Positions 2,851 through 21,299 of a stretch of 64,000 bases of DNA are shown piece by piece (position 1 is the stretch's first letter; every line of letters starts with the position of its first letter). The stretch spans positions 1 to 64,000 of the IMG/VR virus record IMGVR_UViG_2920580016_000002; one strand, given 5' to 3'. The stretch is from a virus (lineage: Duplodnaviria; Caudoviricetes). The notes under the pieces were generated by a model. It saw only the letters and a program-made list of their open reading frames with translations. It was not told the DNA's origin and made no database searches. The translations under genes were made by a program, and so were the position numbers.

Positions 2851-3527
2851 GCCAAGGGCTCCTGTCGCCAGGTGTGTGTTTGGGATGGCTCCACTCTTGC
2901 AGCCCCCGGCCGCCCGCCGCAACTGACGTCTGCGCAGGTCAAGATGCGTTTCAGAGGCCGTTTTTAAGGCTCGCGCACGCGTAATTAAGCGTTTCCCCAG
3001 CCCGCGAGGACCTCTCCGGCCCGCACTACGCGGGATTCTGGACGTAAACCTCGCCCGCAGCCGCGTAGAGCCACAATGTCACGGTTGCATAACACTGAGG
3101 TCCTGTCCGAGGAGCCGGTTAGGCTCCGGTTATGAACCTGCAAGAGATCATCGCAGCGAAGCGCCGAGAGTACGGAGCGGCCGAGTGGCGGCGCATGGAG
3201 CTGGAGGCCGAGCAGGCGACCGGCACGTGGATCGACTACCGGCGCGGTGTTGAGTGCTGGCGCTGCGGTCACACCAGCCGCCCCTGTGCCTGCCCCGAGT
3301 AGTCGCAAACGCGAAGGCGGACCTCCCGGCGACGTCTTGCTGTTCTTACGGGGAAAGCGCGACGGCAATCCTCGATGAAGGGCCGGGAGGCCCGCCACGT
3401 GCGCGGGAGGTGTTCATGTGGCCATAACCACCGTAAGGCTCTCTCGGGCCTCAATGGAGCCCGCGCACGCAACGAAGATACGCCTGCGCCCATGCTCCGG
3501 CAAGGCAATCACCAGAACTTGACGCCC

Positions 3528-3758
3528 TCACTCTGATTCGACCCAGAAGGTGGACGAGGCTCTGCCCGTGGCGTCGTACGTCAGCTTGACGATCTGCTCC
3601 GAGTCCGGCTGACCCAGGCACAGGCCGAACTCCTCCGCCAGCAGGCCCCGGTACTCCTCGTCCGAGATTGGCTCTCTGTGCCACGTCGAGACCGTGGCTG
3701 TTCCGTCTCCGTGATCACGCAGCACCGTGATCATCGTCTGCGGGTTCCCTCTGGACAC
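3528..3758 (-). CDS. possible small hypothetical protein
   Basis: 76-aa ORF with protein-like composition, isolated in the gene-poor region. Confidence 0.4.
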   Translation of the reverse strand: MSRGNPQTMITVLRDHGDGTATVSTWHREPISDEEYRGLLAEEFGLCLGQPDSEQIVKLTYDATGRASSTFWVESE

Positions 3759-5339
3759 GGGTTCGACCTTTCGCCGAATTAGCCCTAATTAATTGCTAAT
3801 TAGCTCGAAGCGAATTAAATCTATTGCACGTGCAATTAAGGGACTGGCTCCTCGCGGTGTTAGGCGCACAGCAAGGAGCCAGCCGATGCTCCATCCTGCC
3901 AGCTCGACCAGCTCGACGGTCACCGAATCCCCGCAATTCCCCCGATTCGCCGCTTGTGACGTTACGTTAGCTAGCAGGTGCCGCACGTACAGGCCACTGT
4001 CTTCACTCTCTGTACTCCCGCCGCGTGGCTGGTCGGGCCGCTAGGAGGGACCCGCAAGATCATTTAAGGGTGGGGGGTGCCTGTCAAGCGCGAGCGGCTG
4101 TCACAGCGCGTTCTAGACCTGTTGCAGAACGCTAGAGAGACTTGTGAGAATGGCACTACTCACACATAGGACGTGACCAGGCACGATGTCACACAGTGAT
4201 TTCTATACCATACGTGTCAAGCTCACGCTGTGTATCTAGACCAATCTCGGGGAAGCCCTACCGGCCACTGTCAGGAAATGATCTTCGGAGTCTGACAGTG
4301 CTGCCCGACCAACGGGAAACGGGAACGAATCCCCACTACTCTGGTTGGTTAACTGACAGCTATGTAAGGACATAAGCACAAAAGCGCTTGCAAGCCGCTT
4401 GCTCCAGCAATCACGGAATGCGCTTATATAAGTCAATTCGCATAGTTCCGACGGCGCGCGTGGCGCGCACGGAACGGGGGCACGCCGGGAAATCCATAGA
4501 TGCCTCTATGCGTCTCTGTAGTACATCTAGGAGGCTCTATGGGCCTTGTTTGGTAGTCATTCCCCGAGCCCGATTTTCTCGCCTCTATGGTGCCTTGTAG
4601 GCCCGTAAATTCGTTCTCGGAAACCTATTGACTCTCTACTCGGATCGAGTAGTCTATGGATTGTTCGGCCAGCGGGAACGGCCGGACCGGTCGCCCCACG
4701 AGCCACGATCCCCGCAAGGGATACGGGCACGGAAGCGGGTATGAGGGCCGACAATTGCATATGACTATGAGCGTGGAGAGGGCTTGCCCTTCCGTGCCCC
4801 GACTTTTCCAGGATGCTCGCGTTTCAGCCTGCGCATTGCGCGGCGCGCTTGAGCGGTCGGTGACACGCACGGACGGCAAGGGTCTAGCTAGGTCTTATTT
4901 AGTCATGCGCGGGAGTCGGTCAGATTCTTGAGTATTCAATAGTGGATTTGGGAGCACTGGACTTGTACCAATGCCCTGATGTGCCTATCTCGCAGTGTGG
5001 CAAGCGCACTGTGAGACTTGCGCGATGATCTCTCGCCGAGATACGCGGACCGTTGTCTCGCCCCGAAAATTTGGGCTGGTTGACCGGGAGCCGCTGGGTC
5101 AAGTTGTGGGAGCGTAGGCACATGTGGTTAGCCACCACGAAGGGAGCGCGTAAGCGCACGTCGCAAGCCGTAAGTAGGTCTTGGACCGGTGCCCCGGCGC
5201 GGACAGCAACGCACGAACCTTATTCACCGCGCCACACGCTAGAGATTGGCCTAGCGAACCAATCTCTTGTGTGTTCTCTGTACGGGCAGACGCGCGTACC
5301 GGGAATATGCACAAAGGCGAATCGTAGAGAGGTAAGAGA

Positions 5340-5519
5340 ATGATCACTCTCGAATACAACCCGTTCGCGAAGCAATTCGACGTCAAGCGGGATGGCGAAT
5401 ACATCGGTTTGATAGAGGAGAACCACGAGACTTACCGGGCGCGTAAGATCGGCTCAAGTTTCGCGAACACAACACAGAGCATGTGTGACGCAATCGACTT
5501 CATCACTGAGGGGAAGTAG
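5340..5519 (+). CDS. small hypothetical protein (59 aa, MITLEYNPFAKQFDVKRDGEYIG...), absent from the ORF track
   Basis: AGAGGT RBS, ATG 5340 to TAG 5519; apparent first gene of the rightward block. Confidence 0.7.
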   Translation: MITLEYNPFAKQFDVKRDGEYIGLIEENHETYRARKIGSSFANTTQSMCDAIDFITEGK

Positions 5520-5527
5520 GTAGAGGC

Positions 5528-5671
5528 ATGGCAGACAACATCGCTCGGCAAGCGCTTATCAATCGGGCGCGGAAGAACAACCACTACTTGCGGCGCGGGC
5601 TCATCTCATGGGCGGATTGGGCCGAAGAGGTGCGCCATATCCAGGCGTACGCATGGCACGTGGTCGGCTAG
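5528..5671 (+). CDS. small hypothetical protein (47 aa, MADNIARQALINRARKNN...), absent from the ORF track
   Basis: GAGG RBS, ATG 5528 to TAG 5671, followed directly by hammerhead 1. Confidence 0.65.
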   Translation: MADNIARQALINRARKNNHYLRRGLISWADWAEEVRHIQAYAWHVVG

Positions 5672-5674
5672 TGA

Positions 5675-5746
5675 TGGCGAAACGCTCGTCTCCCTAACCG
5701 GGAACGTGCGTCGTGCGTAGTTGGTCACTGCGCACCTGATGAGCCA
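5675..5746 (+). ncRNA. type II hammerhead ribozyme #1, predicted cleavage after C5712
   Basis: Stem II TGGC/GCCA, GAAA 5679-82, stem III CGC/GCG, GUC triplet 5710-12, stem I GTGCG/CGCAC, CTGATGA 5736-42. Confidence 0.88.
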
Positions 5747-5788
5747 AACCCAGCTCACAGCACCAACACACAGAAAGGCGGTAGACCC

Positions 5789-6022
5789 ATGGCACAGGGA
5801 CACATGGCGAACGTGCGGGCCGACGGGTACATGGCGCTCGTGATCGGAGCCGCGTTTTCGGACGGCTGGCATGTGGAGCAGACGGAAGAGGCTACCTACA
5901 TCTTCACCAGAGGTGACGAGACGGTCACACTGCCGTTCGTGGAGAACATGCGCGACGCGTTCGATGTCCTGCACTTCGCCGAGCGCTACGGGCTCATGAG
6001 CAAGATCACTGGCAAGCGCTGA
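5789..6022 (+). CDS. hypothetical protein
   Basis: CACACAGAAAGGCGG leader before ATG. Confidence 0.75.
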   Translation: MAQGHMANVRADGYMALVIGAAFSDGWHVEQTEEATYIFTRGDETVTLPFVENMRDAFDVLHFAERYGLMSKITGKR

Positions 6023-6139
6023 CCTTACTTCCGTGTTTCCCTATGTGCTAGCGTCTACCAAACCGGGAGGCGCTAGCACACAGCTCACACGCCCTCACCA
6101 GGGCATCTCTGTGCCCACACCCCAGAAAGGCGGCAAATC

Positions 6140-6454
6140 ATGGTCTCGTTCCTTCCGGATGGCGCGTACGACCGCGACCGTACCCAGACTCCCTACACGT
6201 GCCGAATCTGCGGAAAGGATAGCTGGGTATACAACCCAACCAACCCGAGCATGTTCCGGAGCACGCCGACGGCACACAGCTCATGTGAGAACGCGATCGG
6301 CTACACCAACGCTGACATGCGGCGTGCCACGCTGGCGGGCGATGAGCTGGGCGCGTTGCACCACTACGGCCGGTACCTCCGTGCATGCGCTGGTAACCCG
6401 GATCCCGACTCATGGGACCTGCCGTCGCTCCAGCAGTATCCCCACATTCGCTAG
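6140..6454 (+). CDS. hypothetical protein with CxxC motif
   Basis: CAGAAAGGCGG leader; CRIC...C...C. Confidence 0.7.
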   Translation: MVSFLPDGAYDRDRTQTPYTCRICGKDSWVYNPTNPSMFRSTPTAHSSCENAIGYTNADMRRATLAGDELGALHHYGRYLRACAGNPDPDSWDLPSLQQYPHIR

Positions 6455-6523
6455 GCGAAACGTGCGTCTACCTAACCGGGACGCGCGTCATGCCGGGATT
6501 GGTTACCCGGCGTCTGACGAGCC
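6454..6523 (+). ncRNA. type II hammerhead ribozyme #2, predicted cleavage after C6489
   Basis: GGC/GCC stem II, GAAA 6457-60, stem III CGTGCGTC/GACGCGCG, GUC 6487-89, stem I ATGCCGGG/CCCGGCGT, CTGACGA 6514-20. Confidence 0.92.
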
Positions 6524-6572
6524 AGACCGCGCACGGCAGAACCCCAACCATCACACAGAAAGAGGGACACCT

Positions 6573-7718
6573 ATGTCTCGCGAGTCCATGACCTGGCTGA
6601 ACACTCAGACTCTCATCGGCTTCGCCGCGAAGCGTGGGAAGGCGTGGCACTACCGGTCGGAGGAGCAGGGCGCGGAGTCGAACCACTACGACGGCGCTAT
6701 CCCGCTGGAGGACGTCAAGCGGCGGCTGTTCCACTGGGAGCCGCTGGAGATGCCCATTTTCACCATCATCCCCGCACAGATCACGGCGGACGGCGTCCAG
6801 CCTGCCCGCATCGTGCGCTTCAAGGACCGTAAGTCCATCCTTCGCTCTGACGAGATGGAGACGGTCGGTATCGACGTCGCCCACATCAGCGCGCTTGCGG
6901 CTAACCCGCATGTGGAGCTGGAAGACCTGGCGGACAAGGGCGTCCTTGCTGGCTTGGACGGCAACGCGCTGGGTGTGTTCATGGACAGCTACCAGCCGCA
7001 CCCGTACGCGCAATGGCTGCTCATGAACGTTGAGCGCATCCTTGACGGCAACCTCTCCATCGGCTCGGCCGGTCTGCTCAAGGGCGGAGCCCAGGCTTGG
7101 GTGTCCGTCGAAGTTCCCGAGAACATCAAGACGCCGGAAGGTGTGGACTTCCGCCCGAATCTGCTGGCCACCACGAGCTTTGACGGCTCGCTCGCCACCA
7201 CATACAAGAACGTGGTCACGGTGGTTGTCTGTGACAACACGCATGCGGTTGCCATGCGAGAGAAGGGGCAGGCGTTCAAGGTTCGGCACAGTTCCAAGAG
7301 TCTGAACAAGATTCAGGACGCGCGGGCCGCGCTGAACATCGTCTACGACACGGCCGACGCGTTCCAGCAGGAGGTTAAGCGGCTGTGCGAGACAACGGTC
7401 ACTGACAAGCAGTGGGCCGCGTTCATGAATGAGCTGGTGCCCGTTCCGACCGACCCGAAGAAGAAGCAGGGCATCACCATGGCGGAGAACAAGCGCGCCG
7501 AGTACGCCCAGCTCTGGAACTGGGATGAGCGTGTCAGCCCGTGGAAGAACACCGCATGGGGCGTTCTCCAGGCGGTCAACACCTACGACCACCACAAGGG
7601 CATCGTGAAGGGTGCCACGCGGGCCGAGCGCAACATGTCCAAGATGGTCAAGAACCACTTTGAAACCCTGCGTACCGACACGCTGGACACGCTGAACAAG
7701 GTTCTCGCGACGGTGTAG
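6573..7718 (+). CDS. DUF932 / phage-plasmid LGT_TIGR03299-type protein
   Basis: Start ATG 6573 after the leader; AWHY, YQPH, SAG.L.GG.Q.WV, TSFDGS..T, VVCDNT, VRHS and TAWG.LQAVNTY.HH motifs. Confidence 0.85.
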   Translation: MSRESMTWLNTQTLIGFAAKRGKAWHYRSEEQGAESNHYDGAIPLEDVKRRLFHWEPLEMPIFTIIPAQITADGVQPARIVRFKDRKSILRSDEMETVGIDVAHISALAANPHVELEDLADKGVLAGLDGNALGVFMDSYQPHPYAQWLLMNVERILDGNLSIGSAGLLKGGAQAWVSVEVPENIKTPEGVDFRPNLLATTSFDGSLATTYKNVVTVVVCDNTHAVAMREKGQAFKVRHSSKSLNKIQDARAALNIVYDTADAFQQEVKRLCETTVTDKQWAAFMNELVPVPTDPKKKQGITMAENKRAEYAQLWNWDERVSPWKNTAWGVLQAVNTYDHHKGIVKGATRAERNMSKMVKNHFETLRTDTLDTLNKVLATV

Positions 7719-7867
7719 GCCGCTCATGGGAGCGTCTCTCTAACCGGGAGATGCTCCCACCCCTTCCCCGATTTCTAGGCGAGCTAGGGGGACGCACGGG
7801 CCGCGTGTCCGTGCCTCCCTCAGTTCGATGTGACGTCGGACTCCCCACACAGAAAGGCGGTAGATCC

Positions 7868-8158
7868 GTGCTGCTCAACAAGCTCCGCACGTCCGATGCG
7901 GTCGCTAAGTTCCTCCGGCAGGCCGGTTGTCTGGGTGTGCAGATGGACAGTAGGACATGCCCGGTCGCGCAGTACATGCGGCGGTGCTATCCGCAGGCAA
8001 AGAACATCTCTGTCGGATTGCGTTTCTCGCACATCAACCTCCGTTCTGGTCTGCTCGTGATCAGGCACTCAGATGCGGTCAAGCTGTTCGTTGAGAGTTT
8101 CGACAGCGGGTATTACCACGACCTGATTAGCAAGCGTAACGACGCCGACCAGCGTTAG
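7868..8158 (+). CDS. hypothetical protein
   Basis: Leader motif followed by GTG 7868; CPVAQY and FV..FDSG.Y. Confidence 0.7.
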   Translation: MLLNKLRTSDAVAKFLRQAGCLGVQMDSRTCPVAQYMRRCYPQAKNISVGLRFSHINLRSGLLVIRHSDAVKLFVESFDSGYYHDLISKRNDADQR

Positions 8159-8160
8159 CC

Positions 8161-8409
8161 ATGCCTGCATATCCGCTCGGATTCATAGAGGCGCTCTCTG
8201 ATGACTCGCCCGAAATCCGAGAGGATGCGGCGCGCTGCATCATCGAAGAACGCGAGGTAGAGCTAGCGGGCCTTCAAGCACGCCTAGCAGTCGCGAACAC
8301 CGCAACCCGACGCCGGAATCTCCAGACGCGTCGCAAAGCCCTTAGAAACAACATCAGCGCTTGGCAGGCGTACATAGATGACGGCTGCCCGCGCTACGCA
8401 CCTTCATAG
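8161..8409 (+). CDS. hypothetical coiled-coil protein
   Basis: Tightly packed ORF. Confidence 0.65.
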   Translation: MPAYPLGFIEALSDDSPEIREDAARCIIEEREVELAGLQARLAVANTATRRRNLQTRRKALRNNISAWQAYIDDGCPRYAPS

Positions 8410-8411
8410 GA

Positions 8412-8711
8412 GTGAGTGTGTCTGAGATCCACGAGAGCACGCCCGAGCAGCCTGTTTATCTGCGGTTCCTGGTCGGCCGAATGGAGTTGCTGCATCAGGT
8501 CACCATTCCGAGCGACAACGCGGGCCGCGTGGAAATGGCGCTGGTTGTTCTGCGACGGGAGCACGACACCACGCCTTACATCGTGTGCTACGTCAGCGAG
8601 CATTCCGCGAAGTTCGGGGAGTGGTTTGAAGGTTTCTACACCTCCGATCACGTCACCGCATACGTGGAAATGGCGCGACGGGCAAAGCTCTACGGCATCG
8701 AAGTCAAGTAG
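8412..8711 (+). CDS. hypothetical protein
   Basis: AGGAG RBS; its stop overlaps hammerhead 3. Confidence 0.7.
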   Translation: MSVSEIHESTPEQPVYLRFLVGRMELLHQVTIPSDNAGRVEMALVVLRREHDTTPYIVCYVSEHSAKFGEWFEGFYTSDHVTAYVEMARRAKLYGIEVK

Positions 8712-8771
8712 GCGAAACGCGCGCTACGGCGCGTGTCGTGTCGGGAGTCGTTACCCGATGCCTGATGAGCC
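8711..8771 (+). ncRNA. type II hammerhead ribozyme #3, predicted cleavage after C8737
   Basis: GGC/GCC stem II, GAAA 8714-17, stem III CGCGCGC/GCGCGTG closed by a cUACGg tetraloop, GUC 8735-37, stem I GTGTCGGG/CCCGATGC, CTGATGA 8762-68. Confidence 0.93.
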
Positions 8772-8795
8772 AGACCACACAGAAAGGCGGGAGAA

Positions 8796-9314
8796 ATGGC
8801 ACCTCGCATTGACAAGAACCTGGTGATCGTTCTGGACCACACGCGATTTCAGGGGTTCGGTCACATCTACGCCAAGCCGTTCGTAGAGAACAACGGGTTC
8901 GAGCCGACCGGTAAGGGTGATCTCCTAGCCCCCGGACTTGGTAGCCGGTGGGGCTGGGAGCGTAATTACAACTGGCTGCGTGATCTCCGAACGTCAGCGC
9001 AATACACCATTGGGCACGCGGACGGAGGCTTGTACGGCTACGACATCCACTATTCACAGCCGTTCAGTGTCCAGCTCTACCAGGCGGAGGCGATGGTTAA
9101 GGCACTCCGCAAGATCCATCGAGAGATGGACAAGCTGAAGAGCACTCACGGCTACCCCGATTCCTATGGGGAGTACGTCGCGCACTTCGCTATAGCTATC
9201 GGCTGCAACCGCTTCGCCACCTGGCAGAACGGCACGCGTAGCTACATGTGGATGAACACAGCCGAGATGCGTACTTGGGTGGAAGGCGTCTTTCGCGAGG
9301 CGGTGGCGGCCTGA
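8796..9314 (+). CDS. hypothetical protein
   Basis: Leader motif before ATG. Confidence 0.75.
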   Translation: MAPRIDKNLVIVLDHTRFQGFGHIYAKPFVENNGFEPTGKGDLLAPGLGSRWGWERNYNWLRDLRTSAQYTIGHADGGLYGYDIHYSQPFSVQLYQAEAMVKALRKIHREMDKLKSTHGYPDSYGEYVAHFAIAIGCNRFATWQNGTRSYMWMNTAEMRTWVEGVFREAVAA

Positions 9315-9315
9315 C

Positions 9316-9549
9316 ATGGAAGACGTACGCGAGGCTGACAGGCCCATGGTGGGCATTGTGGCCTGGTCCAATCAGGTCTGTGTCTACCGTCTCCCCGATT
9401 ACGCCGATTGTTTCCAGTCGATTGCCGTTCTCTGGGGTGAATACCTCTCGGGAACGGTAGTGCTGGAAGTGACGCCGGACGCATGGGAAGCCGAGCGAGA
9501 CGAGCTGCTTTCCGCGCCGGATATCACGGTAGCGACCTTCGGTTTCTAG
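9316..9549 (+). CDS. hypothetical protein
   Basis: Packed ORF with GAGG RBS. Confidence 0.6.
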   Translation: MEDVREADRPMVGIVAWSNQVCVYRLPDYADCFQSIAVLWGEYLSGTVVLEVTPDAWEAERDELLSAPDITVATFGF

Positions 9550-9683
9550 GCGGTCTAGGGGGATGCGCGGACACGCGCCGCGCGTCCCTCAGTCCGATGT
9601 GACTCCGGACTATTCCCCACTGCTAGAAAACCGTGCGTCTCTCAAACCGGGAGGCGTGCGGCGCAACGCCCAAAGGATGAGCC

Positions 9684-10268
9684 GTGACACCTATTCCCCT
9701 CCCGGTTTCTGACGAGACGCACGAGCGTTTCGTGGCCAACATCATCTACACGTACGGCCACGCGACACAGGACCAGTGGGAGCGCGGTAAGACCTGGTAT
9801 CACCAGGCTAACCAGCTCGCCGCGATGATCTCGGGTGGCGACGTAGTGACCGGTGCAGGCGTCATCGCTGCCCTGTCGAGTAACAAGCGGTGGAGCGATA
9901 ACACGAAGCTGGCTGCTCGCGCGTTCCTGCGTGGCGAACCGTCGGGGCACGTCGGTGATGCCCTGACGAAAGCGGCTCGGATCATGGCGGGCGAGCGGCC
10001 TACTGATGTTCTCCCCATGTCCAGCAAAACGGGCCAGTTCTTTCTGTGCATCGCCAATCCGGCCGATCCTCAGGCGGTCTGTGTGGACCGGCACGCGCAC
10101 GACGTAGCCGTTGGCGTGAGGTACGGCAGCGAGAATCGCGGCCTTAGCTCTAAGGCGCGCTACCAGGCCATCGCGGACGCGTACAGAGATGCCGCGCGGC
10201 GGCTTGATGTCCTTCCCCTGACGGTTCAAGCCGTCTGCTGGGTTGTCCAGATCGAAAGCAGCAACTAA
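9684..10268 (+). CDS. HhH/endonuclease III-like phage protein (DUF7178-like putative base-excision enzyme)
   Basis: G..WY..A, AGVIAALS, KT..F, VCVDRHA and Y..IADAY..AA...LP..VQA.CWV motifs. Confidence 0.6.
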   Translation: MTPIPLPVSDETHERFVANIIYTYGHATQDQWERGKTWYHQANQLAAMISGGDVVTGAGVIAALSSNKRWSDNTKLAARAFLRGEPSGHVGDALTKAARIMAGERPTDVLPMSSKTGQFFLCIANPADPQAVCVDRHAHDVAVGVRYGSENRGLSSKARYQAIADAYRDAARRLDVLPLTVQAVCWVVQIESSN

Positions 10269-10286
10269 CACAGAAAGGCGGAAGTT

Positions 10287-10856
10287 ATGTCCACAGAGTT
10301 TCTGACCATGGCTCGCGACGTGGCCCGTGAAATGGGCGGCTGGGATGTGCGGGGCGGTCCCTGGCCGAATCAGTTCTACATCTACGACGGCGACCAAAAG
10401 CTGTGCCTGACGTTCGACGACCTTGACGACACAGGCCGGGTCAACATCAGCACCAGCTACCCGGAACGGTCGGGCGAGGTATACGGCGTGAGGCAGTACA
10501 ACATCGGCGTGTCCTTCAAGCGCGGGGCGGCGGTGATCGCCCGCGAGATCAAGCGGCGGCTTCTGCCTAACTACCTGGCGGAGTTGGAGCGCGTGAAAAA
10601 GGAAATCGCCGAATTCGTAGAGGCGGAGCGCCGACAGGTGGCCAACGCTAAGGCGATAGCTGGCGCTCTCGGCGTGGAGTGTGCGGCGGTTGTTCACCCC
10701 TCCGGCATCTACGTGCGTACCGGATACAGCGGCGACTACCAGGACGTTGGTCGCCCCGAATTCCGCGTGTTGGGAAGCGGAAATGTTGAAATCAAGATCC
10801 ATGCGCGGGCCGACGTCGCGCTGAAGCTCGCCGAATTCATGGCGACAATCAAGTAA
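10287..10856 (+). CDS. hypothetical protein
   Basis: Leader motif before ATG. Confidence 0.75.
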   Translation: MSTEFLTMARDVAREMGGWDVRGGPWPNQFYIYDGDQKLCLTFDDLDDTGRVNISTSYPERSGEVYGVRQYNIGVSFKRGAAVIAREIKRRLLPNYLAELERVKKEIAEFVEAERRQVANAKAIAGALGVECAAVVHPSGIYVRTGYSGDYQDVGRPEFRVLGSGNVEIKIHARADVALKLAEFMATIK

Positions 10857-10946
10857 CAACGGTCGCGAGCGCTTCTGGCATCGCCCGGATTTCCGGGCGG
10901 TGTCAGTGGCACGGCGAACGTGTCAGCCACACACAGAAAGGCGGTA

Positions 10947-11291
10947 ATGATGAAGCTGCTCAGTCTGTTCAAGCGCACGCCGCGCTACATCGTCGAGATC
11001 GCGCACGACGAGCTTTATGCCACATGCCTTAACCCCGACTGCCCGATGGACCTGGAGCAGATCAAGCTCCTAGACAACGGGGATGAGGCGGCCTATCACA
11101 TCGCGGTCTATCAGGTGTGCCCCGATGGCCACGGTAGCGAGTGCCCGCATGCCAATTTGATCGCCGACACCACCTGTATCGCGGACTACGGCCTTCCTAC
11201 GGGGCGATACAGCACCCCGGACGACATCGGCGGATCTGACTATCTACGCGATGTCGCTAGCGGCATCTGGCCTGGAAAGGTGGCGGCGTAA
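10947..11291 (+). CDS. Cys/His-rich hypothetical protein
   Basis: Leader motif before ATG 10947. Confidence 0.7.
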   Translation: MMKLLSLFKRTPRYIVEIAHDELYATCLNPDCPMDLEQIKLLDNGDEAAYHIAVYQVCPDGHGSECPHANLIADTTCIADYGLPTGRYSTPDDIGGSDYLRDVASGIWPGKVAA

Positions 11292-11542
11292 TGAATGAGC
11301 GGTCGCGACTCTGCGTGCCCATCGAGCGGGAGATTTACCGGCTGCTGCTGGAGCGCGTCCCGAACAATGCAGACCGGCTCCCCACGTTCGAGACCATCAA
11401 CGATATGGACGAGCAGGTAGCCCATGCGGCTATGAACTGCATAGAGAACTATCTGGCGGACAACGGAAGCCTGTGGCACTTCACCAGGCGGAGGCGCGTA
11501 CGCGAGTGGGCCGAGAACACCCTTAAGCGATTCGGTCTCTAA
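11291..11542 (+). CDS. hypothetical protein
   Basis: TAATG stop/start overlap. Confidence 0.7.
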   Translation: MNERSRLCVPIEREIYRLLLERVPNNADRLPTFETINDMDEQVAHAAMNCIENYLADNGSLWHFTRRRRVREWAENTLKRFGL

Positions 11543-11558
11543 GAGAAAGGCGGATGTA

Positions 11559-11822
11559 ATGAACGTTGCCCAAATCATCTGGTCTATGTCGCGGAGCCTC
11601 TCCCGATATGAGAATGCCCGCACGATCCTCGGAGAGACGTACGCGAAGCTCAGCCGTACCGATGTGCCCCCGCTAGACAGCGCACGGGAAGCGCTCGCGT
11701 ACGTGACAGACCACATCGGTTATGCACCCGGTCAGTCGCCAGACACCACGCTCAATGACGCGGTGGCTGTGCTGTCCATGTACGTGGCGATTCTCACTTT
11801 GGCCGACAAGTACGAGAGCTAA
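11559..11822 (+). CDS. hypothetical protein
   Basis: AGAAAGGCGG RBS. Confidence 0.7.
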   Translation: MNVAQIIWSMSRSLSRYENARTILGETYAKLSRTDVPPLDSAREALAYVTDHIGYAPGQSPDTTLNDAVAVLSMYVAILTLADKYES

Positions 11823-11838
11823 GGGAAAGGCGGAAGTA

Positions 11839-12141
11839 ATGGCACGCAAGGTAAAGCCGATGTGGACTCTCGTGCAGCACAGCGCTTATGGATGGGACCG
11901 CAAGGAGGGGTTCCGGCACATGGTAGAGACCAGGTCTGTTCTCGATCGTGTCCAGCAGCGGGAGATTGAGCGCCTGGGCGGCCTGCTCTTCGAGAGCTAC
12001 ACCGACGCCGATGAGGCGGAGTACCGGGAGAACTACCCCGAAGGTGCCGATCTCCTCGCCGGGAAGGTACGCGGCACCTTCGCCGAGTACAACCTTGACG
12101 GACTGAAGCTCTACATTCCCGCGAAAGACGACACGGCCTAA
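11839..12141 (+). CDS. hypothetical protein
   Basis: GAAAGGCGG RBS before ATG 11839 (MARKVKP). Confidence 0.7.
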   Translation: MARKVKPMWTLVQHSAYGWDRKEGFRHMVETRSVLDRVQQREIERLGGLLFESYTDADEAEYRENYPEGADLLAGKVRGTFAEYNLDGLKLYIPAKDDTA

Positions 12142-12233
12142 CGGGTCCTCTGGTCACCATGCCTGCCCCGAATTCTGCGGTGGGCATGGGCGGCTGGGGC
12201 GTCCGCTAGGGCGATCACACAGAAAGGCGGGAG

Positions 12234-12491
12234 ATGGGAAAGCACCGCAAGACCAGCATGCCGAATCCGACCAGCAACGTGGCCAACGAGCACGGCGCGA
12301 TGCTGGCGAGGTTCGGAACGACGGCACCCGAGGCCGAAACTCTCCTCCGTTTCGGCTCTTTGGTCCTGTCCAACATCGCTACTGGCTTCGCTCCTGATCG
12401 GGCAACGGCGGCGGCGCTGCGCTCCTTCAGCGATCCGGAAAACGTGGTCGAACTGGGGGCGTCGGTCTGGGAACGCATCGAAACCGAATAA
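12234..12491 (+). CDS. hypothetical protein
   Basis: Leader motif before ATG. Confidence 0.7.
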   Translation: MGKHRKTSMPNPTSNVANEHGAMLARFGTTAPEAETLLRFGSLVLSNIATGFAPDRATAAALRSFSDPENVVELGASVWERIETE

Positions 12492-12511
12492 CACAGAAAG
12501 GCGGTAGAACA

Positions 12512-12892
12512 ATGCGAGACGTTCACCTGGAATTCCGGGACAGCGTCGGCTGGTGCGGGACGGCACCAGAGGATGAGAACAAGATCACGGATGACCGGCA
12601 GCTCGCCACTTGCGACGACTGCCGTACGGCATGGGAGAACTTCGACGCCTCCCACGATGCCGAGCTGCCGGAGGACTACGACGGGTCCGAGCCGGAGCTA
12701 CTGGCCAAGATGCGCAGGATCCAGGCCGGTGTGGCGGGCCGCATCGGAAACACCCTGATCGACATGCAGAGCGCGAACCTCTGGGTGCAGGCATACGAGA
12801 AGGGCAACGACAACACCAAGGCCAAGCTACTGGAGATGGATCCGGGAACGGCGTGCCTTGCGCTCTGGCGCATTGTTGGGCGGTCGAAGTGA
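12512..12892 (+). CDS. hypothetical protein with C...CxxC motif
   Basis: Leader motif before ATG. Confidence 0.7.
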   Translation: MRDVHLEFRDSVGWCGTAPEDENKITDDRQLATCDDCRTAWENFDASHDAELPEDYDGSEPELLAKMRRIQAGVAGRIGNTLIDMQSANLWVQAYEKGNDNTKAKLLEMDPGTACLALWRIVGRSK

Positions 12893-13065
12893 CCGCCCTT
12901 GAGATTGCTGCTCGGGCCGCGTTCTACGCCCGGCAGCGAGAGGCACAGGCGGTCGTGACGGACCTGAGTCGGCGGGAGCGCGCGGCGCGGCGCTCGGGTG
13001 ACCGGGCGCACGTACGAGCCATCCGGCGCGAGGTGCGGCGCATCCGCTCCGAGGCATCGGCCTAA
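12889..13065 (+). CDS. small Arg-rich hypothetical protein (MTALEIAARAAFYARQRE...)
   Basis: GTGA overlap with the upstream stop; fills the gap to the next leader. Confidence 0.55.
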   Translation: MTALEIAARAAFYARQREAQAVVTDLSRRERAARRSGDRAHVRAIRREVRRIRSEASA

Positions 13066-13091
13066 ACACCACACACAGAAAGGCGGTAGTA

Positions 13092-14060
13092 ATGGCAGAG
13101 ATCGAACAGCGGGAGATCCTCCTCCCCGAAGGCAATGTGTTCGTGTCCATCGAAGAGGCTCGGGGTGAGCGCGGGGAGCTGCCCACGTTGCGCGTGGCGA
13201 CGTCAACCCACACAGGCACCGACGCCGTAGAGACCACGGTCAAGATCAAGGCGCACGAGTACACCTTCCTCATGCGGGTCATGCACGGGACGAAGAAAAC
13301 GTGGTTGTACTCCCGCCAGGAGTGGCAGGAGGAGCACGGATGGCACACGGCAGACAACGAGCACATTCGAACGGCGGGCGGTAACGAGCTGGGCCGGTAC
13401 TCTCCTACCGGCGAGCGGCTGGCCAACGTCGCCGTCATCGCAGCACAGGAGTACGAGAAGCTCGTACCTGACTGGCGCGTGCGCAGCAAGATCGCGGCCA
13501 TGCACAAGGCCATGAGAGCCGATTGGCACAGCTACTACCTGAACACGCGCGAGGCGGTAGGGCTGCGGCTGCACTGCGCGGAGTTGGAAGAGGGTATTCG
13601 CGCGCTGCTGCCTGACCTCACTGAGGACCTGCCTCTGCCCGATTTCGCTCTCGACCTCAACCAGCCCCACTTCCGCGAGATCTACGGCGAACACGAGTGG
13701 TGGCACACAGAGGGCGACGTCTACGGAAACCCCGGCATGTGGCACGTGCCTGGCTGCCCGGTGACGTGGCGGGCCGGTGCGGTCCGCAAGGAAACCGCGC
13801 CCATCATGCGACTCCTGGTGAAGGGCGGCGCGCTGTGCGGCTGCGTGCCTGACAAGACCACGGCTGTGGAGATGCCCGACGGCAGCCTGCGATGGCGGCC
13901 AAGCGGCCTGGCCTGGCACCGCTGGGCGGTGGTTGAGAAGGTCGCCGAGGAGTCACGGCTGGTGAGCTGGCACCTGACAGAGGACGACGTCATAGCCGCT
14001 GTCGGGCGAAGCCAGAACCCCACGGCGTGGGCCGCTCGCGCATACCTCACGCAGCCCTAG
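13092..14060 (+). CDS. hypothetical protein (322 aa; C-terminal H..GC / CGC possible metal site)
   Basis: Leader motif before ATG. Confidence 0.75.
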   Translation: MAEIEQREILLPEGNVFVSIEEARGERGELPTLRVATSTHTGTDAVETTVKIKAHEYTFLMRVMHGTKKTWLYSRQEWQEEHGWHTADNEHIRTAGGNELGRYSPTGERLANVAVIAAQEYEKLVPDWRVRSKIAAMHKAMRADWHSYYLNTREAVGLRLHCAELEEGIRALLPDLTEDLPLPDFALDLNQPHFREIYGEHEWWHTEGDVYGNPGMWHVPGCPVTWRAGAVRKETAPIMRLLVKGGALCGCVPDKTTAVEMPDGSLRWRPSGLAWHRWAVVEKVAEESRLVSWHLTEDDVIAAVGRSQNPTAWAARAYLTQP

Positions 14061-14167
14061 CGGGTCCTCTGATCACCGCGCGTCTACCTAACCGGGACAG
14101 GCGCGCGGCCGGTCGGGGCGTCCGCTCGGGCGATCACCAACACACAGAGAAAGGCGGTAGATCCGTC

Positions 14168-14437
14168 ATGCCCAAAGTCCTGATCTTCCCTTACCAGCGT
14201 CCCCAGAGCCGAGTTCCCGACGTGCGCGGCCTGGGCTGGGTGGCCCGTCGCGCCCTCATGATGCGGGCGTCATTCAAGCTGGAACGCCTGGAGAAGGGCA
14301 CGAGCATCCTCATCGGCCAGACCTTCGACGGCGACGAGCGGACCAAGCTCAAGGCGCAGCTCCAGCAGATCAAGGCGGATCTCCGCGCTATCCGGAAGTA
14401 CGCCAGCGATGGTTTCCCGGCTATCCGGGAGGTCTGA
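14168..14437 (+). CDS. hypothetical protein
   Basis: Leader motif followed by ATG 14168. Confidence 0.65.
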   Translation: MPKVLIFPYQRPQSRVPDVRGLGWVARRALMMRASFKLERLEKGTSILIGQTFDGDERTKLKAQLQQIKADLRAIRKYASDGFPAIREV

Positions 14438-15211
14438 GTGCTCGCCCGATTTTTCTGCGGTGCCCCTGAGCTGAGCTGGGCAGAAGAGCACGGCGACATA
14501 GGGCCGTTGTTCATCAGCTTCAACCGCATTTCCCGGTTAAAGTTTCGGCCGATCATCATCACCACGGATTTCGCTATCGACTCAGGCGGCTTCACACAGC
14601 TTTCCAAGGGCGGTTGGCCTGATGGCTGCGAAGAGCCCTACATCGCCGCGATTCGCAGGCTCAAGCGGCACATCTGGAAGGGTGCGCAGCACCTTCAGTG
14701 GATTGCCCCGCAAGACTGGATGTGCGAGGAAGAGCAGCTAGCCAACACCGGCCTTACGGTGCTCGAACACCAGCAGCGCACCGTACAGAACTTCGTTCGC
14801 CTCACCGAACTTGCCCCCGATCTTCCATGGGCCATGGCGGTGCAGGGCACGAAACCGTCTGAGTATCTCCGCATTCTCGACATGTACGCGGATGCGGGAG
14901 TGGATCCCCACGCGCAGAAGATCGTCGGTGTCGGTTCGATCTGTCGTATTCAGCACACAGACCTGGCCGTAGAGATCATCGAGTCCTTGCACAATGCCGG
15001 GCTGCGGAAGCTGCACGGATTCGGGCTGAAGACTGAGGGGCTCGCAAAGGTCGGGCACCTTCTTACCTCCGCCGATTCGATGGCCTGGAGTGAGCACGCC
15101 CGGAAACAAAAGATCCGTCTCGACGGGTGTCCACACAAGCGGTGCGTCTCTTGCCCGAAGTACGCCAAGCAATGGCGGAACAGGCTCATCCAGCGCGGCC
15201 TAGCCGCTTAA
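14438..15211 (+). CDS. DpdA/TGT-like (queuine tRNA-ribosyltransferase-like) base-exchange protein
   Basis: FAIDSGGF, APQDWMCE, VQG, VGVGSICR, LHGFGLK and SADSMAWS motifs plus C-terminal C.H..C..C. Confidence 0.8.
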   Translation: MLARFFCGAPELSWAEEHGDIGPLFISFNRISRLKFRPIIITTDFAIDSGGFTQLSKGGWPDGCEEPYIAAIRRLKRHIWKGAQHLQWIAPQDWMCEEEQLANTGLTVLEHQQRTVQNFVRLTELAPDLPWAMAVQGTKPSEYLRILDMYADAGVDPHAQKIVGVGSICRIQHTDLAVEIIESLHNAGLRKLHGFGLKTEGLAKVGHLLTSADSMAWSEHARKQKIRLDGCPHKRCVSCPKYAKQWRNRLIQRGLAA

Positions 15212-15229
15212 CACAGAAAGGGGAAAGAA

Positions 15230-15475
15230 ATGACGGATCTCAAAGCCTGGCATATGAACGTGCCGGAGCTGGGCGCGTGGAACGAGGTCGCGACCGGTGC
15301 ATGGCAGCTACACAACTTCGGCAAGCAGCTCGACGACATCGCCTTTCAGGTGCTCAAGCAGGCGCGGCACTACCCGAAAGCCGCTGAGCAGGTGATCACT
15401 GGGCTGAACGAGCAGATTGCCCACCTGGTCAAGCTTCGTGACGACCTGACCGCGTTCAACCAGAACCAGCGCTAG
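15230..15475 (+). CDS. hypothetical protein
   Basis: ACACAGAAAGGGG leader. Confidence 0.7.
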   Translation: MTDLKAWHMNVPELGAWNEVATGAWQLHNFGKQLDDIAFQVLKQARHYPKAAEQVITGLNEQIAHLVKLRDDLTAFNQNQR

Positions 15476-15507
15476 CCCCTACCCAATCACACAGAAAGAG
15501 GGAAGTA

Positions 15508-16026
15508 ATGCCCTTCGACAACCCCTCCCTTCTCGTCACCTTCGTTGGTGAGGGTGAGCACCGGCACGAAGAGCTGGAGTTCGACCTGCTTGACGTCGAG
15601 CTGGCGGAGCTGCAAGACGAGATCCGGAAGGCCATTGGGCCGTGCTACACGATCGAGACGGACGACGACGACTGGGAAGGCGTTGCCGTCGCAGAGGCGG
15701 CGTCGGCGCACGACCTGTGGCAGCTCGCCCGGACGGCTCACAAGCTGGACTATTCGGAGGCGTTCTTGGCCTGGGTGGCGCACGTCCGGCCCTACAGCAT
15801 CCGCAGCCTAAACCTGGAGGAGGCGGTTGAGGATTTCGGCAAGGAGTTCGTCGGAGCTTTCGAGAACTTCGAGGCGTACGGGCGTGACTCGCTGGCGGAT
15901 GAGATCTTGCGCTTCCCGGCGCTGGATACGTTCTTCGACTTCGAGGGGTACGGCGAATGGCTGGCTTCCGACTACACATCGGTTGACCTGAACGCGGGCG
16001 GCTTCGCGCTGTTCAGGAAGGTCTGA
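15508..16026 (+). CDS. ardA: antirestriction protein, ArdA family (DNA mimic)
   Basis: Very acidic; EAFLAWV, F.G.FE..E.Y and FFDFEGYG..L motifs with a FALFR C-terminus. Confidence 0.8.
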   Translation: MPFDNPSLLVTFVGEGEHRHEELEFDLLDVELAELQDEIRKAIGPCYTIETDDDDWEGVAVAEAASAHDLWQLARTAHKLDYSEAFLAWVAHVRPYSIRSLNLEEAVEDFGKEFVGAFENFEAYGRDSLADEILRFPALDTFFDFEGYGEWLASDYTSVDLNAGGFALFRKV

Positions 16027-16030
16027 GGCC

Positions 16031-16402
16031 ATGGCCAACAAGGTCATTCGCAAGTCTGACGGTGCGCGCGGCCAGTGGGTCTTGCGGGCTCAGCCGCAGA
16101 ATCACTCCATCTACGAGTGGCACGACACTCAGCCGATGTTCGCCCAAGAGATCCTTCCTCATAGCGATGTGGCCGACCCGCACGACCGCGAGGGCGGGCG
16201 CTGGGGGCAGGTGGCGGAGCTGGCGCAGGCTGCTTCTGGCGCGGCCGGAGTGCTGGGCGAGATCGCCGCACACTGCATGAACGGCGGTTGGTACAACGAG
16301 ACGGAGCGGGACGCCAAGCGGCAGCTTGAGCGGCTGGAGCACATCACGGCTCTGATGCGCGAGCGCGTAGAGGCTGCGTGCTGTACCGGGCGCAATCGCT
16401 GA
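16031..16402 (+). CDS. hypothetical protein
   Basis: Packed ORF with GAGG RBS. Confidence 0.65.
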   Translation: MANKVIRKSDGARGQWVLRAQPQNHSIYEWHDTQPMFAQEILPHSDVADPHDREGGRWGQVAELAQAASGAAGVLGEIAAHCMNGGWYNETERDAKRQLERLEHITALMRERVEAACCTGRNR

Positions 16403-16411
16403 AGGTCTGAC

Positions 16412-16454
16412 CGGGGTTGACTCCTAGAATCGAGTAGAGCTGGAGTCAACCCCG
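16412..16454. promoter_or_regulatory. perfect 13-bp inverted repeat CGGGGTTGACTCC-N17-GGAGTCAACCCCG upstream of the RHH gene
   Basis: Read directly from the sequence; intergenic, 13 nt before the ATG. Confidence 0.55.
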
Positions 16455-16467
16455 ATCGGAGTACACC

Positions 16468-16803
16468 ATGGCGTATTCAACGAGCATGTACCTGCCCGTC
16501 ACAGTCATCAAAGCAATGAACGAGAAAGCGGAGAAGAGCGGCCTTACCCTATCCGCTGTTGCGGCGGCTCTCGTAACGAGAGCACGGAGGGGCGAACTTC
16601 CCGCCGAGTTTCTCATTCCCCCGAAATTCGAGCGGGGCGAGACCAAGAAAACCCAGAACGTCTACCTTTCAGACGATGTCTGGACGGAGGGCGAAGGCGC
16701 TGCAATAATTCCTGAAAAGGACCGCCCGCGATTCGTTACGGCGCTGATGTACGCCTACTCGCGGTGCCTGGTAGACGTGCAGCTAACCGTCACCATTACC
16801 TAA
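16468..16803 (+). CDS. tandem ribbon-helix-helix-like DNA-binding protein
   Basis: Two beta-strand + helix-helix units: STSMYLP..VIKAMNEKAEKSGLTLSAV and TQNVYLSDDVW...PRFVTAL. Confidence 0.55.
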   Translation: MAYSTSMYLPVTVIKAMNEKAEKSGLTLSAVAAALVTRARRGELPAEFLIPPKFERGETKKTQNVYLSDDVWTEGEGAAIIPEKDRPRFVTALMYAYSRCLVDVQLTVTIT

Positions 16804-16829
16804 CACACACAGAAAGAGTAGCGGAGCAT

Positions 16830-17627
16830 ATGAAGGACCGGGAAAGCATCGAGAAGCGGGCACAGGCCATCCTTGCCAAGGCCGAATCCGCAGCCAAGCT
16901 CGGCAACCATGAGGAGGCGCAGACATATTTCGCTGCCCTCTCTGAGATGTTCCACAAGTACGACCTTGACGCGGCAGCGCTGAAGCCGGAGACGGAGGCG
17001 GGCCGCAAGGCAATCAACATCGTCACGTACTCCTTCCAGGTGTCCAACCAAGGCCAGCACGGGCGCGAGCGCGTTGAGGCTCTGTACGAATTCATCTGGG
17101 CCATGGGCTGCGCCGCCTCCGTGTGGGGCTGCAAGCGCAACACCTACGGTGCGCCGATCCGCTTCGAGGTGCTCGGGCCGGATGACGTTATGGAGCGGCT
17201 CAAGGTCCTGATCCCGGCTCTTCTGCTCCAGATGGACGCAGCGGCCAGCCAGTCGGCGAAGGCGTACCGGGAGCGCGAGCGGAAGGGGATGGAGTGGTTC
17301 TACCGCGACTATCCAGGCGAGCTGGCGTACAAGGTCAAGATCTGGTACCGGTCCGTCATCGTCGGCTACGGCAAGGGCGTAGCGCAGAAGGTATACGAGC
17401 GCATGCAGGTCATCCAGGAGGAGGCGGCAGGCACCGGCAAGGACCTGGTCTTGCTGGACCGCAGGACCGCCGTTGAGAAGGCGTACGAGGAACTCTGGCC
17501 GGACCTCAAGCAGATGCGCGAGATCAAGACTCGTGCTGACGCCGTGGAGGAAGGGCGCAAGCTCGGGCGAGCGGCCGACCTGGGAGACCAGCGTCTCGGT
17601 AACGAGCGCACGAGCATCACTGCTTAG
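16830..17627 (+). CDS. DUF2786-domain protein
   Basis: N-terminal I.KRAQAILAKAES....EEA..Y......HKY.L helix hairpin; leader motif upstream. Confidence 0.75.
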   Translation: MKDRESIEKRAQAILAKAESAAKLGNHEEAQTYFAALSEMFHKYDLDAAALKPETEAGRKAINIVTYSFQVSNQGQHGRERVEALYEFIWAMGCAASVWGCKRNTYGAPIRFEVLGPDDVMERLKVLIPALLLQMDAAASQSAKAYRERERKGMEWFYRDYPGELAYKVKIWYRSVIVGYGKGVAQKVYERMQVIQEEAAGTGKDLVLLDRRTAVEKAYEELWPDLKQMREIKTRADAVEEGRKLGRAADLGDQRLGNERTSITA

Positions 17628-17707
17628 CCGGATTCGTGTCGGGGCGGCGTCCTACGATGGGGCGTCGCCTCTCTTCTTCCCCGAAATGCAGCAGATCAGG
17701 AGCAGAT

Positions 17708-18217
17708 ATGAGCACCCCCGACGAGGGCTACGACGAGCCGCGCGAGCCGATCGCCTGGAGCACTTACCACATCCACGGCACCGATGACGCAGCCGAGATG
17801 CACTGGGCCACGAACGACGATGAGGACACCGGATACCCCGGCGTTCACGCGCAGGACACCTACCGCTTCCAGCGGAACGAGCGCGGCACCGCGATTCAGC
17901 AAGCCGTCCGGCAGGCGGGCGGCGGCTCACGTCAGGGTGTCGGCCACAAGGTGTCGGTCTTCATCAACGGCGAGGAGTACAAGGGCGGCAAGGATTACCA
18001 GCCGACTCCGCCCCCGAAAACCTCTGTGCCGCTGGCGTCGGCGGAGATCGACAAGGATGCGTACTCCGGTTCTCCCGCAATTCGCTTCATGGTCCGCGAC
18101 ATGATCGGCAACGCTCACGGCCAGCTCGTCAGCCTGGAAGTGGCGATGAAGTTGCACGAGGAGCTGGGCCGCGCGATCCAGGAGGCGCAGCGGCAGCAGC
18201 GGGAGAGTGGCGAATGA
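17708..18217 (+). CDS. hypothetical protein
   Basis: AGGAG RBS before ATG 17708. Confidence 0.7.
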   Translation: MSTPDEGYDEPREPIAWSTYHIHGTDDAAEMHWATNDDEDTGYPGVHAQDTYRFQRNERGTAIQQAVRQAGGGSRQGVGHKVSVFINGEEYKGGKDYQPTPPPKTSVPLASAEIDKDAYSGSPAIRFMVRDMIGNAHGQLVSLEVAMKLHEELGRAIQEAQRQQRESGE

Positions 18218-18405
18218 GCTACAGCAGCGCAGGACCGAATTACACCCCCTACCTTGAGGCCAACGCGATTCTCGCAGCGCAGGAAAACGACCGTGAAGAG
18301 GTGCGCCGGATACTGCGGGAGATGCTGCCCGGCGAGCGCGAGCGGCTCGCGGATGCATGCGATGTGCTGAGAAACCAGATCGAATACATGAGGGGCGAAG
18401 AGTGA
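18214..18405 (+). CDS. hypothetical protein
   Basis: ATGA overlap. Confidence 0.65.
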   Translation: MSYSSAGPNYTPYLEANAILAAQENDREEVRRILREMLPGERERLADACDVLRNQIEYMRGEE

Positions 18406-18686
18406 ACAAGATTCACCGAAGTGTCATCACGTCGGCTCTGGATAATGCGGGCGTCGATACGACCGCCGAAATTCTCGACACCTACGAGACGCCTACCGAG
18501 CGGAGCGGATTCGGGATCGAATTTAAGTCGCACGGAGACGCCGCCAAGTTCTTCGTCGGCCTCGGAATGTACCTCTACAACGGGGAGGACGAGGACCGCG
18601 CTTACGAGCTGGCGGAGGCTATGGCCACCGGCTACACGGCCCGAAGCCAGGTCTACTTCTTCCCCGGCTGGGAGCTGGAGGACTGA
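18402..18686 (+). CDS. hypothetical protein
   Basis: GTGA overlap (MNKIHRS). Confidence 0.65.
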   Translation: MNKIHRSVITSALDNAGVDTTAEILDTYETPTERSGFGIEFKSHGDAAKFFVGLGMYLYNGEDEDRAYELAEAMATGYTARSQVYFFPGWELED

Positions 18687-19283: not shown

Positions 19284-19531
19284 CGTACTACGGATTCCCC
19301 GAAATCCTGGAGAAGGCGGCGGCCGACAAGGGCGTGACGACGGATGACCTCAAGGGGCAGCACGTCAGGGTGACGGTGGAGCTGGCGGAAGGCGACACGG
19401 CGGTGATCACCGGCAGTACGAAGAAGGAGTGGGTCGGGCCGGGCAAGGTCACCTACGTGTTCTGGCCGGATGGTGGAGTCGGTGAGGACGTCATCGAAGG
19501 CGCAACCTACAGGCGGAAGCCGGGTTACTGA
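19280..19531 (+). CDS. hypothetical protein
   Basis: GTGA overlap. Confidence 0.65.
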   Translation: MTYYGFPEILEKAAADKGVTTDDLKGQHVRVTVELAEGDTAVITGSTKKEWVGPGKVTYVFWPDGGVGEDVIEGATYRRKPGY

Positions 19532-19609
19532 GCACTCGCCTTTGTCGCCCGAATTCGGGGCGGGCGGCATTGGGGTCTGCTCAGGACACACAGAGACGGG
19601 AGAAAGAAC

Positions 19610-21240: not shown

Positions 21241-21299
21241 GCAAGTGATGGACGGCGGGTAAGATCCTTGCGAGAGTCGGACGAACGAGGATCTACCGC

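Follow-up and report, generated by a model that had tools for sequence, protein, structure and literature searches.

The spacer between the second and third genes of a prophage early operon carries what is, on sequence grounds, a real type II hammerhead ribozyme (RF02276), designated hammerhead 1, that is predicted to cleave after C5712. It is quite likely that the ribozyme cuts the early operon transcript, that the resulting units become end-protected single-gene mRNAs, and that a phage-specific factor reads the tip of stem III. In itself, a hammerhead in a spacer between phage genes is ordinary, the class, its type II topology and its clustered prophage context having been described in 2011. 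This lineage shows a ribozyme helix carrying a genome-wide, phage-specific signal, changed in step at four positions across about 16 sites between two sister phages, and no description of a ribozyme helix as the carrier of such a signal was found in the literature searched.

The window, which is the whole 64,000-nt stretch of DNA that was analysed (G000:C1:654950-718949), comes from a 12.4 Mb genome with a GC content of 70.3%; coordinates without a contig name refer to it. A prophage island of ~110 kb and ~63% GC extends roughly from C1:635000 to 745000. A tyrosine integrase, an Lsr2-like protein and several HTH regulators are encoded at its left end, and the island also encodes DNA polymerase I, ribonucleotide reductase, DnaB, a UvsX-like recombinase and a baseplate J protein. 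By this gene content (integrase, replication, baseplate J), the island is the integrated genome of a large tailed phage of a high-GC actinomycete. The closest named phages, judged by DNA polymerase, are the Streptomyces phages GiJojo, pSt2308, LuckySocke and BRock (~113 kb), whose polymerases are ~45% identical to that of the prophage at the amino acid level. The Rfam model Hammerhead_II had no match in these four BRock-like phages, and megablast of 4000-10000 against the INPHARED phages also returned no match.

Genes are directed rightward from ~5340 to 21554 and leftward on either side of that block. The rightward block encodes DUF932, DUF7178, DpdA and ArdA, a gene content by which it is an early anti-restriction operon. 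Hammerhead 1 is the first of three hammerheads in this operon. The 47-aa ORF upstream of it ends with TAG at 5669-5671, followed by an in-frame TGA at 5672-5674; its coding statistics are good, and it has no homologue in the sister phage described below or in 109 genomes of the genus. The features of the locus are as follows.

5528-5671, plus strand: upstream 47-aa ORF, the second early gene, from the list of open reading frames (GC3 0.79; AGAGG Shine-Dalgarno before the ATG)
5648-5661, plus strand: possible anti-ribozyme strand UACGCAUGGCACGU in the last codons of the 47-aa ORF, pairing with 5704-5719
5675-5753, plus strand: hammerhead 1, with all defining type II parts and a predicted cut after C5712
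5675-5678, plus strand: stem II 5' strand UGGC; U5675-C5678 pairs with G5743-A5746
5679-5681, plus strand: core G12 A13 A14, invariant in 31 of 31 aligned hammerheads
5682-5711, plus strand: stem III, from A15.1 to U16.1, 12 bp with a UAACC loop, assigned from the fold and from family covariation
5687-5703, plus strand: 17-nt phage-wide motif CGTCTCCCTAACCGGGA, which is the top of stem III and recurs across the prophage
5712, plus strand: C17 of the GUC triplet, with self-cleavage predicted 3' of this base from its position in the hammerhead fold
5713-5735, plus strand: stem I, 5713-5721 with 5727-5735, 9 bp, loop UGGUC
5736-5742, plus strand: core CUGAUGA (C3-A9), read from the sequence and the Rfam alignment
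5743-5746, plus strand: stem II 3' strand GCCA; the 4-bp stem II is left open
5747-5753, plus strand: 3' tail AACCCAG, which may form a pseudoknot with loop I (GGU/ACC or UUGG/CCAG)
5754-5788, plus strand: CA-rich leader and GAAAGG Shine-Dalgarno of the 77-aa gene, common to hammerheads 2 and 3 and to the sister-phage hammerheads
5789-6022, plus strand: downstream 77-aa gene, the third early gene, with a weak Pfam Y4YQ_C match
6453-6531, plus strand: hammerhead 2, Rfam 37.1 bits, motif in stem III, 5' of the DUF932 gene 6573-7718
8710-8779, plus strand: hammerhead 3, Rfam 42.8 bits, UACG tetraloop, without the motif

A first-pass annotation of the sequence had described a type II hammerhead with all core elements at this site, and the description was borne out by the sequence itself, by the minimum free energy (MFE) fold, by a descriptor search, by a subfamily covariance model and by an orthologue. 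Every coordinate that it gave was correct, including the start of the core 4 nt after the upstream stop, and the motif does lie inside the extended stem III at 5687-5703. Stems I and III are closed by loops while stem II is open, the layout of the type II circular permutation. Stem III has two flaws, a U.U mismatch (5686/5707) and a bulged C5690; its closing pair, A5682-U5711, is followed by the non-G base C5712, giving the triplet GUC. The MFE structure of the 81-nt stretch was exactly the hammerhead fold, with an ensemble frequency of 0.37 and z = -2.8. This fold supports the proposed position of the predicted cut, after C5712 and 76 nt 5' of ATG 5789. The pairing between loop I and the 3' tail, a pseudoknot that has at least 4 bp in most type II members, amounted to 3-4 bp, no better than with shuffled tails.

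The same annotation had proposed a search with the Rfam hammerhead models as a check. Hammerhead_II did align with hammerhead 1 from end to end, but the score of 27.9 bits (E 0.0011 in 401 nt, 0.17 in the 64-kb window) was below the gathering cut-off of 37 bits and the lowest among the three hammerheads of the window. The shortfall is due mainly to an 11-nt insertion in stem III and also to the U.U mismatch and a 3-nt deletion in the tail. A covariance model, R1, trained on hammerheads 2 and 3 and two sister-phage copies, with hammerhead 1 excluded, gave 60.8 bits (E ~3e-13 in 239 kb). The Rfam threshold thus misses real members with a stem III insertion, while a subfamily model recovers them cleanly. 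A descriptor that demanded, in order, GAAA, stem III (4 bp or more), U and any base but G, stem I (4 bp or more), CUGANGA and stem II (3 bp or more) matched four times in the 12.4-Mb genome (24.9 Mb counting both strands), and three of the four matches were hammerheads 1-3, on one strand and within 3.1 kb. Chance resemblance was rejected on the strength of this genome-wide rarity and the R1 score. Elsewhere in the genome there are two weak hammerhead-like sites, at G000:C2:1075688-1075800 (minus strand) and G000:C11:253508-253556 (plus strand), one a descriptor match with stems of 5, 3 and 6 bp and the other an Rfam match of 25.8 bits. A looser pattern, run on a collection of genome contigs, gave at least 119 matches, almost all of them chance matches in coding DNA.

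The sister phage, IMGVR_UViG_2935054407_000001 (108,967 bp), has syntenic early genes that are 52-78% identical to those of the prophage and five type II hammerheads in the same operon (L050, record segment 21948-33560). The orthologue of hammerhead 1, L050:5165-5236, scored 27.6 Rfam bits and lies just 5' of the 66%-identical orthologue of the 77-aa gene; the genes flanking the two ribozymes share about 66-72% protein identity. The core positions are intact in both. All nine pairs of stem I are retained in the orthologue through three double compensatory and two single changes, and the loop is identical. Between hammerhead 3 and its orthologue, compensatory changes are seen in each of the three stems, stem II being GGC/GCC in one and GCC/GGC in the other. 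The junctions that bear hammerheads differ between the two phages, so ribozymes have been gained and lost.

The subfamily pattern GGCGAAAC...GUC...CUGAYGAGCCARACC matched 12 IMG/VR contigs, among them the sister phage. In an alignment of 31 hammerheads to the model, 97% of the pair cells were standard and 162 cells were changed on both sides, a count to be read with the caveat that the alignment was fitted to the model; none of 500 shuffles reached the real value, and slid controls paired at 30-42%. Complementarity between loop I and the tail was found across the family, with a mean best helix of 4.57 bp versus 3.32 bp for shuffled tails, and covariation of this pseudoknot is clear in other members, e.g. 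UUCAGC/GCUGAA. Three related actinobacterial phage contigs with DUF7178, IMG/VR 2974781553, 2767802072 and 3300046558_000076 (L220, L222 and L216), each have 7-11 type II hammerheads within a stretch of 6-16 kb, so that almost no gene junction is without one. A filtered search of 110 genomes of the genus for hammerheads found a match in this genome only, and the DUF932-containing loci of the genus had no hammerhead. A pattern search of metagenomes returned 14 matches, of which 13 were chance and one was an unrelated hammerhead, and no motif-bearing relatives.

The placement of the ribozymes relative to the genes was uniform. All eight hammerheads of the two sister phages start 0-9 nt after the upstream stop codon, and all eight have the same CA-rich leader and GAAAGG ribosome-binding site on their 3' side. 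Of the two products of hammerhead cleavage, one bears a 2',3'-cyclic phosphate and the other a 5'-OH. Hammerhead 1 would cut its own transcript after C5712 and so separate the message of the 47-aa ORF from that of the 77-aa gene. The upstream piece would retain its stop codon and have the long stem III hairpin, with the 2',3'-cyclic phosphate, as its 3' end. The downstream piece would have a 5'-OH at its start, where the stem I hairpin lies ahead of the shared CA-rich leader and the ribosome-binding site. With both pieces hairpin-ended and stop codon and leader retained, each gene would obtain its own end-protected mRNA, if these ends protect the pieces.

The anatomy and the literature together point to a role for hammerhead 1 in mRNA processing or stabilisation. 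Perreault et al. (2011) reported hammerheads clustered around single prophage genes, including a triple array flanking ardA, demonstrated cleavage of such arrays both in vitro and in vivo, noted that the loop I-tail pseudoknot is important for speed, and proposed that processing of long phage transcripts yields mRNAs of one gene each (PMC3088659). The anatomy here fits that proposal, and by analogy the most likely role is the cutting of the early anti-restriction transcript (DUF932, DpdA, ArdA) into hairpin-ended single-gene mRNAs. The likeness to these RF02276 prophage clusters (PMC3088659) extends to the type II topology, the full core, a design with a candidate loop I to 3'-tail pseudoknot, the short spacers flanking single genes, the ardA operon and the presence of several copies within a few kb. 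In contrast to them, hammerhead 1 is below the cut-off, has a 12-bp stem III tipped by a phage-wide motif and has a weak pseudoknot.

The three DUF7178-bearing contigs have the same early region and the same hammerhead subfamily, with ribozymes placed straight after stop codons and before ribosome-binding sites. Their hammerheads, however, are 7-11 minimal ones (62-65 nt, with a short stem III) per 6-16 kb, whereas the prophage and the sister phage have only 3-5, most of them with a long, motif-bearing stem III. The division of a transcript into hairpin-protected units with standardised 5' leaders is familiar from the early mRNA of T7, which is cut by RNase III, and from synthetic ribozyme insulators of the RiboJ type. 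As in those systems, a polycistronic early transcript would be cut between genes, but here the RNA itself would do the cutting rather than a host enzyme, and the arrangement is natural, not engineered.

The motif at the top of stem III is not confined to the ribozymes. Twelve copies were found in the window, where 0.15 were expected, and in the whole genome matches with two or fewer mismatches fell only within C1:644793-718871, except for one 2-mismatch match on contig C3. The count for the prophage is 15 copies, which includes two 3-mismatch variants. The motif is asymmetric, most copies are intergenic, and all 15 are co-oriented with the local genes. Two copies overlap head to head at C1:644793-644824, near the left end of the prophage and about 10.1 kb left of the window start, where they make up a 32-nt near-perfect palindrome between convergent genes. 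A search with the motif pattern gave one match in IMG/VR, which was unrelated, and in 110 genomes of the genus the pattern occurred in this genome and as one single match besides.

In the early operon, the motif is associated with hairpins. All six early-operon copies cap hairpins whose stems are far better than those of flank-shuffled controls, and the sense strand folds better than the antisense. Eight of the 12 early-region copies of the two phages share one register, and in the alignment of these eight, from which four copies with indels were left out, 96% of the cells were paired and 12 were changed on both sides, values that none of 500 shuffles reached. The covariation lies in the outer pairs, and many of the pairs are U.G pairs that are valid only in the sense RNA. 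Late-region copies are mostly without a stem (28654, 49852 and several in the sister phage). Motif-capped stand-alone hairpins that follow stop codons and have no ribozyme core were observed at 6045-6079, 7727-7755, 9631-9660 and 14076-14107; two of these match the hammerhead model weakly, at 14069-14144 and 9628-9721, through the motif alone.

The motif lies at an offset of 12 nt from the hammerhead 5' end in two of the three hammerheads here and in four of five in the sister phage. In the sister phage, a variant of the motif, CGTCTTTCACACCGG(G/C/T)A (CGTCTTTCACACCGGNA), occurs 16 times and follows the same orientation rule; stem III contains it in four of the five hammerheads there. Positions 6, 7, 9 and 10 of the motif differ in step between the two phages, at sites that are orthologous and have nearly identical flanks; in the hairpin, they fall at the start of the loop and in the two pairs next to it. 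The coordinated change at four positions across orthologous sites implies that the motif is read by a phage-specific factor that has co-evolved with its sites. From the sequences compared, the top of stem III is dispensable for catalysis, since a UACG loop takes its place in hammerhead 3 and in the orthologue of hammerhead 3. Two phages, two motif variants and natural UACG-loop controls make this a tractable system in which to study the purpose of phage hammerheads and whether any trans factors act on them.

What the factor reads may be DNA or RNA. There is an appreciable chance, although somewhat short of even, that the motif is a DNA operator or stoperator at which the prophage repressor blocks transcription of the early and late operons in the lysogen; the ribozyme would then be real but unrelated, and the motif would lie in stem III only because the tip of the helix is the sole free part of a crowded spacer. 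The stoperators of Cluster A mycobacteriophages (L5 gp71, TipsytheTRex repressor) are asymmetric sites present in many copies, mostly in short intergenic regions, and oriented with transcription (PMC9283540, PMC6550527). Such sites are bound by the phage immunity repressor, which has an HTH and a stoperator domain, and elongation is thereby blocked. The motif here is likewise an asymmetric, multi-copy, transcription-oriented sequence (15 copies, C1:644793-718871), and, for the motif considered by itself, the likeness to the published stoperators (PMC9283540) includes the many asymmetric, mostly intergenic copies, the strict orientation and the difference in sequence between relatives. Several observations favour the operator, 1) the asymmetric copies are restricted to the prophage and all co-oriented with transcription, 2) the late-region copies lack a flanking stem, 3) a double copy stands head to head at the convergent junction C1:644793-644824, 4) the four positions change coordinately between the sister phages, as immunity specificities do, and 5) the integrated prophage encodes an integrase and several HTH regulators. 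However, the motif is 17 nt long versus 13 in Cluster A, its sequence is unrelated and it is a predicted site, and the early copies form part of covarying RNA hairpins and ribozyme helices. A hairpin is no requirement for a pure double-stranded DNA site, yet all six early copies are at hairpin tips that are favoured in the sense strand, and the stems of the eight same-register early copies covary with many G.U pairs.

A repressor of the Cluster A type was not recognised by Pfam and PHROGs among the candidates in the ORFs scanned, which covered part of the prophage only, and this also counts against the operator. A degenerate motif copy, CGTTTCTCTAACCGGTA, is located at G000:C1:654239-654255 (window -710, minus strand), ~35 nt 5' of a GntR-family regulator gene (C1:653596-654204), and the arrangement is conserved in the sister phage; the GntR-family regulator is a candidate reader of the motif. 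A promoter for a phage RNA polymerase, an idea that came from the GGGA end of the motif, was considered unlikely because no phage RNA polymerase was found, and it is kept as a minor possibility. PF00940 had no match in the genome, although the control for this search was uninformative, and no giant ORF was found, the large unknown proteins being tail- or baseplate-like.

A second possibility, which must be regarded as tentative, is that the motif is an RNA hairpin (CGUCU..NNACC..GGGA) to which a phage-specific factor binds, thereby labelling early messages at their 3' ends; on hammerheads 1 and 2, such a factor could influence cleavage or what becomes of the 5' product. The preservation of the hairpin by covariation, with sense-only U.G pairs, argues for recognition as RNA, as do the better folding of the sense strand in all six early copies and the constant 12-nt offset in most hammerheads of both phages. 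Moreover, it is at the start of the loop and in the two pairs under it that the phages differ. Other features fit an RNA site poorly. Several copies of the motif are without any stem, and the sequence of the 5' arm does not vary whereas that of the 3' arm is unconstrained, as would suit the reading of a contiguous 17-mer. In addition, the 12 bp of stem III place its tip at a long distance from the catalytic core, where no effect on catalysis would be expected, and no binding factor was found among the prophage ORFs scanned. A protein encoded nearby, at 1623-2084 on the minus strand in the leftward block beside the early region, has a phage ProQ C-terminal-like domain (PF24203, E 1e-8) and is a possible RNA-binding protein; for an RNA reader it is a lead only.

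In the most far-reaching reading, which is unlikely, the stem III tip of hammerheads 1 and 2, and of four of the five in the sister phage, would be the recognition site of a co-evolving phage-specific trans factor. If the factor acted on RNA, these would be natural hammerheads with cleavage or product fate under protein control, and if on DNA, the DNA coding for a ribozyme helix would double as a stoperator-like operator. In either case, control of transcription and RNA self-processing would be merged in one 75-nt spacer.

The stop codon that precedes hammerhead 1 by 4 nt had led to the suggestion in the first-pass annotation that cleavage is gated by a terminating ribosome. The ribosome translating the 47-aa ORF could cover stem II and GAAA, or it could melt a helix between 5648-5661 and 5704-5719. 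This competing helix was present in the MFE structure of a 201-nt context, and with upstream context the predicted probabilities of stems I and III fell from ~0.98 and 0.87 to ~0.03 and 0.02, respectively. Shuffled upstream sequences had the same effect in only 0-3 of 40 cases and the other seven hammerheads showed none. In the thermodynamic model, an alternative fold therefore dominates in one context but not in the other, since the 81-nt MFE is the hammerhead whereas the 201-nt context favours the competing helix with the upstream ORF. A duplex-energy test of the upstream sequence against hammerhead 1 was not significant (50 of 300 shuffles), and the helix was not seen in the sister-phage orthologue, which also lacks the 47-aa ORF. 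With eight hammerheads tested, one marginal result is expected by chance, and the helix is statistically marginal in the models used.

Adjacency to a stop codon is also general in the ribozyme family, as 17 of 31 type II hammerheads from assorted phages start 0-9 nt after one. It looks like a family-wide consequence of tight intergenic packing and is therefore no evidence of regulation at hammerhead 1. Translation termination is, moreover, fast relative to hammerhead cleavage rates. For these reasons gating by translation of the 47-aa ORF is improbable, and the suggestion was not supported as something special to hammerhead 1; if the competing helix is real and matters, the model predicts that translation would promote rather than block cleavage.

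That hammerhead 1 is a decaying or very slow relic, a hairpin scaffold for the motif with little cleavage in vivo, is similarly improbable: the lowest Rfam score of the three, the U.U mismatch in stem III, the weakest pseudoknot, the predicted upstream helix and the likewise low score of the orthologue (27.6 bits) could be taken as signs of decay, but every core position is intact in both phages, stem I has been kept by compensatory changes since the divergence recorded in the flanking genes (about 66-72% protein identity), and the long stem III insertion accounts for most of the shortfall in score, the family model giving 60.8 bits.

No further hammerheads or tRNA were found in the rest of the prophage. 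A weak match to twister-sister at 53615-53691 on the minus strand (22.2 bits versus a cut-off of 34, E = 3) is probably due to chance. To the left of the operon, no Pfam domain was found in the 10 ORFs of 2985-5340 (2.4 kb). The last ~1.6 kb 5' of the early operon, 3760-5340, lacks a convincing ORF, is lower in GC (57%), with AT-rich stretches around 3780-3850, and could hold promoters, an origin or the ends of the phage genome.
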